NCBI GenBank assembly: GCA_965222895.1
Contig: CBDCVB010000002.1
Coordinates: 1,477,663 to 1,541,662 of the forward strand
DNA from: Dehalococcoidia bacterium
Lineage (GTDB): Bacteria; Chloroflexota; Dehalococcoidia; Lucifugimonadales; UBA3495
Direction of reading: 5' to 3'
DNA length: 64,000 nt
The first letter of the stretch is position 1; every line of letters starts with the position of its first letter. Below are positions 4,682-48,894 of the stretch, piece after piece. The translations under genes were made by a program, and so were the position numbers. The notes under the pieces are model-generated. The model was not told the origin of the DNA, did no database searches, and worked only from the letters and a program-made list of their open reading frames with translations.

Positions 4682-4825
4682 GCGTACCCGCTATAATCTG
4701 TCATTGCGAGCGCAGCGTGGCAATCTCGTCGCTGAAATCGCCGTTGTTGCCTCAAAGAGATCGCCACGTCGCTGCGCTCCTCGCAATGACAGTTGGCCGG
4801 TTGGTTTGACAAGGTGGGCACGTGT
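4682..4825. repeat. MITE/REP-like inverted-repeat element family A, copy 1 of 4
   Basis: GTCATTGCGAGCGCAGCGTGGCAATCTCG (4700-) faces its inverted partner GAGATCGCCACGTCGCTGCGCTCCTCGCAATGAC (-4790). GCGTACCC..CTTTGACA-type subterminal units flank it. Intergenic. Confidence 0.7.
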
Positions 4826-10850: not shown

Positions 10851-10933
10851 GGCACGGCGTACCGGAAACCCGCTTTGCCACGTGCAACTGCGCTCCCGTG
10901 TTTGCACCGAGCCAAAAGACAACGAGGTTTTTA

Positions 10934-11749
10934 ATGGCTGCAAATCCTCAGACACGAACTGACCGAATTGCCGACCGTTTCGCTGCCATCAAGGCCGAGA
11001 GTCGGCCGGGGCTGGTGGTCTTTATGACCGTTGGTCACCCGTACCGCGACGCCGCGCTGGAGATAGCTCCGCAACTGGCAGCTGCCGGCGCGGACGCCAT
11101 CGAATTGGGGATGCCATTCAGCGACCCGATGGGCGAGGGCCCGGTCATCCAGGAGTCCAGCTTCGTCGCGTTGCAAAACGGTGTTACCACCCAGGACTGC
11201 CTGGACACTGCGGCGGCGGTGCGTCCGGACATAGGCGATACACCGTTGATTTTGATGGGTTACTACAACCCCGTCCTGTCCTACGGGCTGGAACGGTTTG
11301 CCAGGGCGTGCGCCACCGCAACGGTGGACGGGTTGATTATCGTGGATTTGCCGTCCACCGAAGCCGAACCGCTGGTTGGCCACCTGGAGCCATTCGGCAT
11401 CCACCTGATTCCGTTGCTGGCGCCAACCAGCACCGACGAGAGCATTGCCCAATCCGTGCGCTTGGGCGGGGGGTTCGTTTATTGCATTAGCGTAACGGGT
11501 GTTACCGGCGCCCGCTCCGAGGTGTCAGACCGGGGCCTGGGACTGGTGGACCGGGTGCGGCAGCAGACTGATCTGCCGGTGGCGGTTGGCTTCGGTATCT
11601 CTACCCGGGAGCACGTGCTGGACGTTGGCAAGCGGGCCGATGCCGCGGTGGTAGGCAGCGTCCTGGTGCGGGCGTTGGGGGATGGCCCGCCGGCGGAAGC
11701 CGCCCAGCGCGCCGCTACGGTGGTGAGCAGCCTGTCCGGGCGTCGATAG
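10934..11749 (+). CDS. trpA: Tryptophan synthase alpha chain
   Basis: LVVFMTVGHP, ELGMPFSDPMGEGPVIQ, YCISVTGVTG and GFGIS motifs. ATG at 10934 preceded by GAGG. No trpB adjacent. Confidence 0.9.
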   Translation: MAANPQTRTDRIADRFAAIKAESRPGLVVFMTVGHPYRDAALEIAPQLAAAGADAIELGMPFSDPMGEGPVIQESSFVALQNGVTTQDCLDTAAAVRPDIGDTPLILMGYYNPVLSYGLERFARACATATVDGLIIVDLPSTEAEPLVGHLEPFGIHLIPLLAPTSTDESIAQSVRLGGGFVYCISVTGVTGARSEVSDRGLGLVDRVRQQTDLPVAVGFGISTREHVLDVGKRADAAVVGSVLVRALGDGPPAEAAQRAATVVSSLSGRR

Positions 11750-11815
11750 CATCGGTTCCTGCGCCGGGGACGCATACGGCGAAAATCAGCCTTGAAGCCC
11801 GTTGACAACCCTCAA

Positions 11816-12037
11816 GCGTACCGGCTTTCACATTCCTGCGTACCCACTTTGACATTACTGCGTACTCACATTGTCATTGCGAGCGTAGCGCGGCAATCTC
11901 GTCGCCGTAGCAACGGCGGTTCGCCGACGTGTGTTCAGCCTCACCGGGATTGCCACGTCGCTAAGCTCCTCGCAATGACAGATCAACGCTGTGCTCCTCG
12001 CAATGGCAGATTAACGCTGTGCTCGCGGCAATGACAG
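11816..12037. repeat. MITE/REP-like element family A, copy 2 of 4 (with internal tandem units)
   Basis: Three ~21-nt GCGTACYC.CTTT.ACATT units, then GTCATTGCGAGCGTAGCGCGGCAATCTCG..core..GGGATTGCCACGTCGCTAAGCTCCTCGCAATGACAG. The right arm is repeated as 28-bp units at 11965-11992 and 11993-12020, plus a partial unit. Confidence 0.75.
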
Positions 12038-12059
12038 ATTAAAGTGGGTGCGGATGAGG

Positions 12060-12088
12060 TTGACAACCTGGTTGCGTCAGGGTAGTAT
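12060..12088 (+). promoter_or_regulatory. Sigma-70-type promoter for the aroG leader
   Basis: TTGACA (12060-12065), 17-nt spacer, TAGTAT (12083-12088). Confidence 0.55.
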
Positions 12089-12098
12089 TTTCTGCGAA

Positions 12099-12203
12099 AT
12101 GAACGCATCCAGCCGTCAAATCACTCGGGGCTTTTATTACCCGTTTTATTATTACGCTTACCGCAACACGGTCGGCGTAAGTCCGGTGTGTGAAGCCCGA
12201 TAA
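12099..12203 (+). CDS. Candidate Tyr/Phe-rich leader peptide (34 aa)
   Basis: ATG at 12099 to TAA at 12201 encodes MNASSRQITRGFYYPFYYYAYRNTVGVSPVCEAR. There are 6 Tyr and 2 Phe within 10 consecutive codons. No SD; the ATG lies about 4 nt after the predicted TSS. Confidence 0.6.
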   Translation: MNASSRQITRGFYYPFYYYAYRNTVGVSPVCEAR

Positions 12204-12227
12204 TTCAGGGGACAATCACTTTGGCAG

Positions 12228-12261
12228 GACTTCAGCCGGACACGGGCTGGAGTCTTTTTTA
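12228..12261 (+). terminator. Intrinsic terminator (attenuator) in the aroG leader
   Basis: GACTTCAGCC / GGCTGGAGTC 10-bp stem (one G.U) with a 7-nt loop, followed by TTTTTTATTA. It lies 45 nt upstream of the aroG ATG. Confidence 0.65.
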
Positions 12262-12309
12262 TTACGACAGCCTGAATGCCCCCGGCCACGAACGAGGAGG
12301 ACACTCAAT

Positions 12310-13359
12310 ATGGTTAGTTCACCCGCGAAGGACGTCAATGTAATGAGCAACAACGCTTTGATACGACCTTCTGAACTGGAAGCCCGTATCCCGCTGACGG
12401 CCAGGGCCGAGGCATCGGTGCTGGCCGGGCGTCAGCAGCTGGAGGCGGTGTTAAATGGCGCAGATGAACGGTTCGCGGTCATCGTTGGCCCCTGTTCCAT
12501 CCACGACAACCGGGGCGCGCTGGATTACGCAGCACGCCTGAAGCCCCTGGCCGACCGGCTCAGCGAACGGCTGCTCGTCGTGATGCGAGTCTATTTCGAG
12601 AAACCCCGCACCACCGTGGGTTGGAAGGGTCTCATCTACGACCCCAACCTGAATGACACCTACCAGATTGAGGACGGGTTGCACCGCGCCCGTCAGCTGT
12701 TGCTCGAAGTCGCCGAAACCGGCCTGTACTCCGCCACCGAGTTCCTGGACCCCATCGTGCCCCAGTACCTCTCCGACCTGGTGACCTGGGCCGCCATTGG
12801 GGCTCGTACTACCGAGAGTCAGACGCACCGGCAGATGGCGTCGGGACTGTCGATGCCGGTAGGATTCAAAAACGGAACGGATGGCGACCCGCAAACGGCG
12901 GTGGATGCGTTGGTGGCGGCCAGCACGCCCCAGGCCTTCCTGGGGATTGACCACCAGGGTCAGGCGTCTATCGTGGAAACCCGCGGCAACGACAACTGCC
13001 ATCTGGTCATGCGCGGCGGACGCAGCGGCACCAATTTCGACTCCCGCTCCATTGCCACGGCGCAGGAGGCGCTTCGCAAGTCCAGCGTGCCACCGCGTAT
13101 AGTGGTAGATTGCAGCCACGGCAACTCCAACAAAGACCACACCCGGCAGCACATTGCCTTCGAGGATGTGATTGCGCAACGCCTTGCCGGTAACAGCGAC
13201 CTGTTGGGGGTGATGCTGGAAAGCAACATCAACCCTGGGGCGCAGAAACTGGCCGAAGACCCGTCCGTGCTGGAGTACGGCGTGTCCATCACCGACTCCT
13301 GCATCGGTTGGGACGAAACGGTAAAGCTGCTGGAGTGGGCATACGAAGAGCTGGGCTAA
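12310..13359 (+). CDS. aroG: 3-deoxy-7-phosphoheptulonate (DAHP) synthase, class I (AroF/G/H type)
   Basis: IVGPCSIHD, RVYFEKPRTTVGWKGL, GARTTESQ.HR and DCSHGNS motifs. ATG at 12310 preceded by GAGGAGGA. Which isozyme (F, G or H) cannot be told from sequence alone. Confidence 0.9.
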   Translation: MVSSPAKDVNVMSNNALIRPSELEARIPLTARAEASVLAGRQQLEAVLNGADERFAVIVGPCSIHDNRGALDYAARLKPLADRLSERLLVVMRVYFEKPRTTVGWKGLIYDPNLNDTYQIEDGLHRARQLLLEVAETGLYSATEFLDPIVPQYLSDLVTWAAIGARTTESQTHRQMASGLSMPVGFKNGTDGDPQTAVDALVAASTPQAFLGIDHQGQASIVETRGNDNCHLVMRGGRSGTNFDSRSIATAQEALRKSSVPPRIVVDCSHGNSNKDHTRQHIAFEDVIAQRLAGNSDLLGVMLESNINPGAQKLAEDPSVLEYGVSITDSCIGWDETVKLLEWAYEELG

Positions 13360-13396
13360 TCGCCGGCCTTTCTCACCACTGCAACGAGTACGCACA

Positions 13397-13433
13397 GCCC
13401 TTTTCCGCTTCGCGGAGAGGGGCTTTTCTTGTT
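13397..13433 (+). terminator. Intrinsic terminator after aroG
   Basis: GCCCTTTTCCGC-TTCG-GCGGAGAGGGGC: 12-bp stem (two G.U) with a UUCG tetraloop, followed by TTTTCTTGTT. Confidence 0.7.
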
Positions 13434-15836: not shown

Positions 15837-16718
15837 GAGGGCGTGTGACAAATAGATTCAGGAGGGCTGGATCCGTTTGAGCATCAGGTGGACCATGGCG
15901 ATATGCACCCAGGCTTCGCTGCTTTCGGTGCGCTCCTCATAGTCTTTGCTGAGCCGGCGACATCGACTGAGCCACGCCAGGGTGCGTTCCACCACCCACC
16001 GGCGCGGCAACACCTCGAAGCTGTGGCTATCCGGTTGCCGCCGTACCACGGTCAGCACCCAACCGCCAGTGGCCCAGGCCCAGGCCACCAATTGACCAGC
16101 GTAGCCAGCATCGGCCCAGATGACTCGGAGCCGAGGGAATCGGTTCAGCAACTTCACCAACACCAGCTTGGCGCCGTCCCGATCCTGGATATTGGCGGCA
16201 TGAACCACCACGGCCAGCAGTAATCCCATGGTGTCCACTACAATGTGCCGCTTGCGTCCGGCGACCTTTTTACCTGCGTCATAGCCGCGCCGCCCCCTTT
16301 TTCAGTGGTCTGCACCGACTGGCTGTCTATGATGGCCGCGCTGGGCGTGGCCTCTCGGCCCGCCGCTTCCCGCACCCGGGCCCGCAAGGCCGACTCCACT
16401 CGTTCCCAGGTCCCGTCATCCCGCCATTTGCGGAAGTACCACCAGACCGTGCCCCAGGGTGGCAGGTCATGGGGCATCAGCCGCCAGGGTATGCCACCGC
16501 GCAGCACGTAGAGAATCCCGTTGACCACCTCCCGCAGGTCGGTGGTCCTGGGATGGCCTCTGGTGGTGTCGGGTGGCAGCAGGGGAGCCAATTCCTCCCA
16601 CTGGGCGTCGGTCAAATCGCTGGGATAAGGTTTTCTGCTCATGCCCCCAGCGTAACCGCCATCCCCTTATCACTCCAAGAACCGCCAGCGCACGTTTAGA
16701 CCATTGTCACACACCCTC
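15837..16718 (-). mobile_element. IS5-family insertion sequence (IS427-like subgroup), 882 bp
   Basis: Terminal inverted repeats GAGGGCGTGTGACAA (15837-) and GAGGGTGTGTGACAA (reverse complement, -16718) match 14/15. They are flanked by a direct TTA (15834-15836 and 16719-16721). Two overlapping transposase ORFs lie inside. Confidence 0.9.
15858..16642 (-). CDS. IS5-family DDE transposase (orfA 16238..16642 plus orfB, joined by a probable -1 frameshift)
   Basis: The N-terminal ..PWRLMPHDLPPWGTVWWYFRKW.. segment is typical of IS4/5 transposase N-termini. The -1 frame after GAAAAAGGGGG (minus strand of 16293-16302) reads RGYDAGKKVAGRKRHIVVDTMGLLL.., continuing into the DDE domain. Confidence 0.85.
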
Positions 16719-22703: not shown

Positions 22704-22748
22704 GTCAGAGTGGCTCAGGCCGCAACTTCTTAACAACCTATTCCCAGG

Positions 22749-22915
22749 CATCGGGCGCCAACAAACCAACTCAGGCTTAATGGGGAAGGCGGTGAAAGAC
22801 CGCCGCGGTTGCGCCACTGTAAGCGGGAAGCCAGACGGTAATCGTCGTCGCCGTTACAACCGGATGGCGACGAACCCGGAAGGCCCAGGCCGCAAGTCAG
22901 GAATCCTGCCCGATG
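22749..22915 (+). promoter_or_regulatory. Cobalamin (AdoCbl) riboswitch
   Basis: P1 stem CATCGGGC (22749-22756) pairs with GCCCGATG (22908-22915). Conserved core AATGGGGAAGGCGGTGAAAGACCGCC..GCGCCACTGT (B12 box) and AGTCAGGAATCCTGCC. It lies upstream of cobalt and corrin genes. Confidence 0.85.
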
Positions 22916-23022
22916 TTTTGCTGGAACTCTACTCTGCGCCCAACAGGGTCGTTCCCCTGCGGCATTCGACAGCCGGTCACAACGGTGTCGGTGCCCATGC
23001 CGCCAACCAGGTGGCATCCCGA

Positions 23023-48756: not shown

Positions 48757-48894
48757 GCGTACCCGCTTTAGTCTGTCATTGCGGGGAGCATAGCGACGTG
48801 GCAATGTCGGTGAGGCTGAACACAGGTCGACGAACCGCCGTTGCTACGGCGACGGGATTGCCACGCTACGCTCGCAATGACAAAGTTGGTACGC
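48757..48894. repeat. MITE/REP-like element family A, copy 4 of 4 (inverted relative to copy 2)
   Basis: GCGTACCCGCTTTAGTCTGTCATTGCGG..core..CGCAATGACAAAGTTGGTACGC. The reverse complement of its 61-nt core differs from the copy 2 core at 5 positions (manual alignment). Confidence 0.75.

Follow-up and report, generated by a model that had tools for sequence, protein, structure and literature searches.

Which signal sets the expression of the class I 3-deoxy-D-arabino-heptulosonate 7-phosphate (DAHP) synthase gene, here called aroG, in a Dehalococcoidia bacterium? We addressed this question in a stretch of 64,000 nucleotides (nt) from contig CBDCVB010000002.1, referred to below as the window. 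In this window, a short open reading frame (ORF) rich in tyrosine and phenylalanine codons lies between a promoter and an intrinsic terminator, 5' of aroG and on the same strand. The initial annotation of the window had read this arrangement as an attenuator resembling trpL, pheL and hisL. Conservation in relatives, compensatory changes, frozen synonymous sites and linkage to aroG all speak for that reading, and from these sequence comparisons we put at about 85% the probability that the leader controls the DAHP synthase gene as a transcription attenuator of the ribosome-mediated, leader-peptide kind. We propose that it adjusts aroG expression to how much charged tRNA-Tyr and, as a secondary signal, charged tRNA-Phe is available, with tyrosine as the presumed dominant amino acid. 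The elements concerned are listed here in window coordinates.

12060-12088, + strand: sigma-70-type promoter (-35 box TTGACA at 12060-12065, 17-nt spacer, -10 box TAGTAT at 12083-12088)
12099-12203, + strand: leader ORF MNASSRQITRGFYYPFYYYAYRNTVGVSPVCEAR (ATG at 12099, 34 codons, stop codon TAA at 12201-12203)
12128-12143, + strand: segment 1, 5' strand of the putative anti-antiterminator, pairing with 12184-12198
12132-12161, + strand: regulatory codon run FYYPFYYYAY (codons 12-21, with 6 Tyr and 2 Phe)
12152-12180, + strand: hairpin P1 (12152-12163 with 12169-12180; the 5' arm corresponds to codons Y19-A20-Y21-R22)
12181-12198, + strand: segment 2, 5' strand of the antiterminator, formed by the last codons of the ORF and pairing with 12227-12241
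12226-12263, + strand: intrinsic terminator (segment 3 at 12226-12237, loop at 12238-12244, segment 4 at 12245-12256, T-run to about 12263)
12294-12301, + strand: Shine-Dalgarno (SD) sequence GAGGAGGA of the DAHP synthase gene, about 38 nt past the terminator stem
12310-13359, + strand: class I-alpha DAHP synthase gene (aroFGH family; TIGR00034 aroFGH and PF00793), the gene under the proposed regulation

The aromatic leader ORF and its linkage to aroG

The Tyr/Phe-rich mini-ORF was found at 12099, where the initial annotation had placed it. When all ten-codon windows in the six frames of the whole 64,000-nt window were scored for aromatic residues (n = 127,942), FYYPFYYYAY was the single maximum, with eight aromatic residues out of ten, and no other site had seven or more. 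The runner-up, PWDYCWPWWF near 16231 on the - strand, has six out of ten and is probably a frame artefact, an off-frame reading over a transposase-like ORF (15858-16238, - strand). The window has a G+C content of 61%, so the AT-rich codons for Tyr and Phe are not expected there. A chance origin of the aromatic run together with the leader arrangement is excluded. The predicted promoter was likewise present at 12060-12088 and matches the consensus at 10 of 12 positions (TTGACA and TAGTAT); transcription is predicted from this sequence to start at about 12094-12097.

For comparison we used DAHP synthase genes with their flanks, at 97% to 81% protein identity, together with a clade at 66% identity, which gave 18 usable loci (designated by the prefix L). 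A scan of genome contigs gave a single close relative, L001, and the other close relatives came from look-ups of the encoding contigs. The metagenome-contig matches listed held only relatives with 57% identity or less, which are uninformative for covariation. The closest DAHP synthases come from metagenome assemblies of sponge-associated Chloroflexota/Dehalococcoidia.

All 18 relatives carry TTGACA, a TAnnAT-like -10 box, an ATG that opens a mini-ORF rich in aromatic codons and, 3' of it, a strong terminator that ends in a T-run. Alignment of the regions upstream of aroG, which the initial annotation had suggested as a check, showed that the FY-rich mini-ORF and the stems are conserved and that some of the stems covary. 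Sequence conservation among the relatives starts just 5' of the -35 box. The leader unit keeps to aroG while the 5' neighbour varies between trpA, a transposase (L161, L173-L175), a helicase (L178) and a luciferase-like gene (L180-L185). Since it stays with aroG despite these changes of neighbour, the unit is to be assigned to aroG rather than to trpA.

The ORF is 34 codons long in 13 of 13 close relatives, and its reading frame, its length and the position of its stop codon relative to segment 2 are conserved. The run has the close-clade consensus G-[YF]-Y-R-P-F-Y-F-Y-A-Y-R. Its positions interchange among F, Y, H, C, R and L, its composition is kept, and Y19 and Y21 are invariant.

The clade at 66% identity (L180-L185, at about 1730-1880 of each locus) has an unrelated leader of 27 codons, MKNAGTVWFYAYYYFTDTNTVGRGDAS, with the pattern M[KN]NAG[TA]V[WC]FYAYYYFTDTNTVGRGDAS, and a different terminator, CCCCAGCCGACAACGGACTGGGG followed by a T-run. 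There, GUCGGC has two alternative partners, the ACCGAC directly 3' of the aromatic run and the GCCGAC of the terminator 5' arm. The clade follows the same logic, in a clean textbook layout of 1:2, 2:3 and 3:4 pairings. The DAHP synthase gene of this clade adjoins the cobalamin-related genes CobN and CbiA.

Predicted exclusive RNA structures and the position of the ribosome

We aligned 14 sequences, namely the window and relatives, from the predicted start to the T-run (alignment A1, mean column identity 81%) and analyzed them with RNAalifold. The terminator core GACTTCAGCC (12228-12237) pairs with GGCTGGAGTC (12245-12254) and is followed by TTTTTTATTA. The stem and the T-run that had been annotated are thus present; our scan lengthened the stem to 12226-12256 (12 pairs, -18.4 kcal/mol, with -18 to -22 kcal/mol in relatives), the T-run overlapping the final two bases of the 3' arm. 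The distance from the stem to the SD sequence came to about 38 nt rather than the 45 nt stated previously, and the start of the DAHP synthase gene had to be moved from 12311 to the ATG at 12310. Across the 14 sequences, 99% of the cells in the terminator stem are paired, and two pairs are changed on both sides.

The antiterminator had been proposed between 12181-12195 and 12230-12241. We recovered it in a slightly longer form, in which 12181-12187 pairs with 12235-12241, 12191-12195 with 12230-12234 and 12197-12198 with 12227-12228. In the 14 sequences 92% of its cells are paired, compared to 26-40% with the partner strand slid. The pair G12181-C12241 is replaced by A-U in four sequences; as 12241 sits in the terminator loop, this covariation is explained only by the antiterminator. 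In L166 the pair A12193-U12232 is replaced by G-C, and the pairing of 12232 within the terminator is maintained as well. With two pairs showing compensatory changes, in five sequences altogether, the prediction of an antiterminator that is exclusive with the terminator is supported. Another candidate, option A, in which the 3' arm of P1 (12174-12184) would pair with 12227-12237, was rejected: it is 82% paired, it shows no compensatory change, and two of its pairs are broken in half of the sequences. This part of P1 (12174-12184) resembles the terminator 3' arm.

Hairpin P1 adds to the elements that had been listed before. It was recovered by RNAalifold along with the terminator, 92% of its cells are paired, and its 3' arm shows changes from U-G to U-A. 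The codons of its 5' arm, TAC GCT TAC CGC, are invariant at synonymous sites.

We then modeled the effect of the ribosome in masked folds, where a 30-nt footprint was imposed on transcripts ending just before the 3' arm of the terminator. With the ribosome on any aromatic codon, the pairing of segment 3 reached 0.8-0.9 in most sequences. With the ribosome at the stop codon it was 0.4-0.5 (window, L001, L163, L166, L172 and L177), segment 3 being released because the footprint then covers 12181-12198. In the 66% clade, the pairing of segment 3 fell from 0.75 with a stalled ribosome to 0.2-0.5 with the ribosome at the stop codon. The free energies of the structures are comparable, at -17 to -25 kcal/mol for the antiterminator region, -19 to -22 kcal/mol for the terminator and -26 to -32 kcal/mol for the leader domain with P1. 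In these models, the position of the ribosome is predicted to decide the fold, a stalled ribosome leading to the antiterminator and a ribosome at the stop codon to the terminator.

The mechanism that we propose would run as follows. Transcription would start a few nt 5' of the ATG at 12099, and the 34-codon leader would be translated while it emerges, probably by leaderless initiation. When Tyr-tRNA and Phe-tRNA are plentiful, the ribosome would reach the stop codon at 12201 and cover segment 2 (12181-12198); the terminator (12226-12256) with its T-run would then fold, and transcription would stop about 50 nt before aroG. When these tRNAs are scarce, the ribosome would stall within 12132-12161 and melt or cover segment 1 and P1, so that segment 2 would stay free. 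Free segment 2 would pair with 12227-12241, that is with the 5' arm and the loop of the terminator, before the 3' arm is made, and the polymerase would read into aroG. In an RNA that is untranslated or released by the ribosome, segment 1 could fold onto segment 2 around P1, and termination would be favoured again. The transcription start site, leaderless initiation and actual termination are the parts of this scheme that we infer.

Several results weigh against the attenuator model as a whole or in part. L169, L170, L173 and L174 showed little or no switch in the masked folds. The antiterminator was predicted to form even without a ribosome in four sequences (window, L001, L164 and L176), in which termination would rest mainly on the ribosome at the stop codon. 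When the full leader was folded at equilibrium, every relative favoured the terminator, irrespective of the mask; the window was the exception, with a terminator-pair probability of 0.48 when free and of 0.01-0.19 with a stalled ribosome. As equilibrium folds favour the terminator, the model relies on co-transcriptional kinetics. Equilibrium modeling of a kinetic switch would be expected to give such an outcome, which is neutral as evidence. Because the aligned sequences are related, independent compensatory events are few, probably two to four. The pairing of 12126-12133 with 12193-12199 in the initial annotation has a close counterpart, the anti-antiterminator, in the minimum-energy folds of the window (12128-12134 with 12192-12198 and 12138-12143 with 12184-12190). 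In relatives this structure is 72-87% paired, with one-sided changes only and no compensatory change, and in the masked folds of some sequences it loses to the antiterminator; it is the weakest element of the attenuator.

Start of leader translation and competing explanations

The ATG of the leader ORF lies 10 nt past the -10 box, which leaves no room for an SD sequence. In all 18 relatives, the ATG stands 29-33 nt from the end of the -35 box, or 6-10 nt past the -10 box, and this spacing is fixed while the intervening sequence varies. From this spacing, the distance between the ATG and the expected start site comes to 0-4 nt. The A of the ATG coincides approximately with the expected +1 in L173-L175 and L001, whose ATG stands 6-7 nt past the -10 box. 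With this geometry, leaderless or near-leaderless translation of the leader ORF is plausible and, in our judgment, rather probable. The earlier claim of a leaderless leader thus keeps the geometry of promoter and ATG on its side and stays a prediction.

The alternative that survives best accepts the attenuator and holds that its leader is not leaderless. The ORF would be translated from a longer transcript without an SD sequence, made by read-through from trpA or from an upstream promoter, or from a start site several nt upstream by a non-canonical mechanism. No terminator is predicted between the trpA stop at 11749 and the promoter at 12060, so that read-through transcripts from trpA are possible. 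The usual spacing between the -10 box and the start would give the window a 5' untranslated region of 2-5 nt and not of 0, which counts against strictly leaderless initiation. Predicted leaderless genes are also a minority in Chloroflexi (about 5% of genes, 4 of 12 genomes; PMC3160421), and aroG itself has a strong SD sequence. However, the near-consensus promoter is held at its fixed distance from the ATG in every relative, the ATG of L173-L175 and L001 falls on the expected +1, loci with a 5' neighbour other than trpA show the same layout, and conservation begins only at the -35 box. We consider a longer leader transcript unlikely, though it deserves more weight than any of the explanations that follow.

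The leader unit could also be an independent small gene that stands beside aroG by chance and encodes a 34-residue Tyr-rich peptide, for example the precursor of a modified peptide, or a small RNA, about 165 nt long, that acts in trans. It has a promoter and a terminator of its own, and core and C-terminal residues of the peptide are conserved (G11, Y19, A20, Y21, R22 and P29). Attenuator RNAs and leader peptides that function in trans are known in Sinorhizobium (PMC6614838, PMC7298713). However, the conserved residues coincide with RNA stems, and their codons are identical. Among the 14 genomes, five of the six amino-acid-invariant degenerate columns of the leader hold one codon, compared to 18 of 229 in aroG (Fisher's exact p = 3e-5), and the five frozen codons (TAC19, GCT20, TAC21, CGC22 and CCG29) all lie inside P1 or the antiterminator. 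Substitutions that are radical for the peptide and spare the RNA occur, with Cys/Trp at codon 31 and Glu/Gly at codon 32, and the N-terminal third is unconstrained, codons 2-10 being free to vary. This pattern marks a leader peptide that matters through its codons and its RNA, and not a functional peptide. Protein-level selection on a functional peptide was rejected on these grounds.

The context of the unit does not favour an independent gene either. In varied contexts, the next gene 3' of the unit is always a DAHP synthase gene in the same orientation; in other phyla, too, such genes are preceded by unrelated mini-ORFs that are FY-rich and have terminators (see below); and no modifying enzymes were found near aroG in the loci of the relatives. 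We hold an independent small gene to be very improbable. A role in trans may exist in addition to attenuation.

Slightly less probable still is a genuine terminator switch that is run by a protein, a tRNA or a metabolite (T-box, riboswitch or TRAP-like), with the ORF being incidental. P1 is strikingly conserved, and aromatic amino-acid genes in Firmicutes are under T-box or TRAP control. T-box control of tyrosine genes is mentioned in PMC1262725. Against such a switch, an Rfam scan of 11750-12400 gave no leader, T-box or riboswitch match at the gathering score, and only chance-level matches (E of at least 0.65) at the E-value threshold. The leader is also too short for a T-box. Frame, 34-codon length and stop position relative to segment 2 are conserved, and the one feature common to the unrelated leaders found elsewhere is an aromatic codon run in an ORF.

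Finally, a chance ORF next to the terminator of trpA has a negligible probability: long spurious ORFs are frequent at 61% G+C, but such an ORF is refuted by the conservation in relatives and by the uniqueness of a run made of AT-rich codons, the terminator lies 477 nt past the trpA stop with a promoter between them, and ORF and terminator are kept with aroG where trpA is absent.

Genomic setting, distribution and known attenuators

The DAHP synthase protein scores 464 bits against TIGR00034 aroFGH and also matches PF00793. The leader ORF ends 106 nt 5' of the aroG ATG, and the AGGAGGA of the aroG SD sequence is kept in relatives. The upstream gene (10898-11749) is trpA. Downstream, a strong terminator-like hairpin (13396-13424, + strand; 13 pairs and a T-rich tail) stands 37 nt past the aroG stop. 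With this hairpin aroG looks monocistronic and is apparently transcribed alone, and the downstream acetyltransferase gene would have its own promoter.

The interval between trpA and the leader promoter holds a dispersed repeat (11816-12042), which has further sites at 4693-4710, 44464-44568 and 48768-48785. It is made of three tandem 28-nt units (11959-12042) with the core CTCGCAATGACAGATTAA and of two 22-nt units (11816-11859), with an inverted arm TGTCATTGCGAG at 11872-11883. The core is present in 7 copies in the window, against 0.03 expected, and the core is also found 5' of the promoter in L162, L163 and L176. The repeat looks like a repetitive extragenic palindrome (REP) or a miniature inverted-repeat transposable element (MITE). 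Besides the transposase-like ORF of the window, DDE_Tnp_1 or IS1 fragments occur near aroG in relatives. A cobalamin riboswitch (RF00174) at 22736-22927 on the + strand, with 71.6 bits and E = 1e-15, is the sole gathering-score Rfam match in the window.

To place the leader in a wider frame, we considered 152 DAHP-synthase loci of many phyla, among the matches listed, and looked 5' of each gene for a mini-ORF that starts with ATG and has 5 or more aromatic residues out of 10. Such a mini-ORF was present in 17 of the 152 loci and in none of the 152 reverse-complement controls. Nine of the 17 (L051, L076, L081, L112, L132, L140, L002, L003 and L005) have a clear terminator between mini-ORF and gene; they include two Gammaproteobacteria (L051, with GFFWFGFYYFFEK, and L076) and other Chloroflexota (L002, L003 and L005). 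The Phe/Tyr(/Trp)-rich mini-ORFs found elsewhere, for example MKKFFYTYYYFRL, ..GFFWFGFYYFFEK and MIQNYFTYYYYFKK.., are unrelated. In the masked folds, three of nine distant loci showed a clear switch (L003, L005 and L081). These comparisons suggest that aromatic leader-peptide attenuators evolved repeatedly for the DAHP synthase gene. A broader reading, which we offer tentatively, is that Tyr/Phe-rich attenuators are a widespread and uncatalogued control of entry into the shikimate pathway that arose repeatedly, in Chloroflexota/Dehalococcoidia, Gammaproteobacteria and other groups, and that they are leaderless in Chloroflexota. If this holds, no classical attenuation system would have been documented in Chloroflexota before the present locus, and the abundant terminated leader RNA or peptide might act in trans, like rnTrpL and peTrpL in Sinorhizobium.

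The locus provides a concrete and testable regulatory element for uncultured sponge-associated Chloroflexota, a group about whose gene regulation next to nothing has been described. The entry of carbon into aromatic amino-acid synthesis may, as the locus suggests, be tuned in these symbionts through the charging of tRNA-Tyr and tRNA-Phe. The FY-rich leaders in other phyla suggest in turn that annotation pipelines overlook such leaders. As no Rfam family covers the element, the 14-sequence alignment could seed an RNA family model. The mechanism is a textbook one, so that the conceptual gain is modest.

The element resembles the enterobacterial leaders trpL, pheL and hisL in its clustered regulatory codons, its exclusive 1:2, 2:3 and 3:4 pairings, its intrinsic terminator and the position of its stop codon, at which a terminating ribosome covers segment 2. 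It differs from them in several respects. Those leaders have an SD sequence and a 5' untranslated region and control terminal-pathway operons, whereas the present leader has an additional hairpin, P1, separating segment 1 from segment 2, and shows weak conservation of the 1:2 pairing.

The attenuators of Corynebacterium glutamicum are reportedly leaderless transcripts, according to work of Neshat and colleagues from 2014. Leaderless leader-peptide transcripts of ilvB are documented for C. diphtheriae (PMC5784534) and for C. glutamicum (PMC11857589). In Deinococcus deserti, 14 predicted attenuators are leaderless (PMC4007540), with the start codon at or within one nt of the start site, and their leaders precede genes for amino-acid biosynthesis or for tRNA synthetases. 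The leader described here would share with them a start codon at or near the transcription start site; it belongs to another phylum, and start sites were measured in D. deserti whereas they are predicted here. It would be a further case of a probably leaderless leader peptide, in which the loading of the ribosome is tied directly to the nascent 5' end.

The closest parallel in function comes from C. glutamicum. In this species, the leader peptide aroR, with Phe-Tyr-Phe, lies 5' of an operon that holds the class I DAHP synthase gene aroF (PMC11802643, PMC4046766, PMC3890552). Stalling of the ribosome under Phe limitation raises transcription of aroR-aroF, and the response is to Phe and not to Tyr (PMC11802643). 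E. coli, by comparison, controls its DAHP synthase genes through repression by TyrR/TrpR (PMC11802643). The initial annotation had taken a Tyr-dominated leader of DAHP synthase to be new. This was overstated, given aroR-aroF and the leaderless leaders named above; what our literature searches, of incomplete coverage, did not find described is such a leader in Chloroflexota or one with a long Tyr-dominated run. Both systems have a short leader ORF with Phe and Tyr codons 5' of a class I DAHP synthase gene, a likeness that we draw from descriptions, between Chloroflexota here and Actinomycetota there. The leader of aroG has 6 Tyr and 2 Phe in ten codons, with Tyr at the invariant positions, whereas aroR has a single Phe-Tyr-Phe triplet; aroR precedes an operon, whereas aroG is apparently monocistronic. 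With these differences, the present leader would extend aroR-type control of DAHP synthase beyond Actinobacteria.

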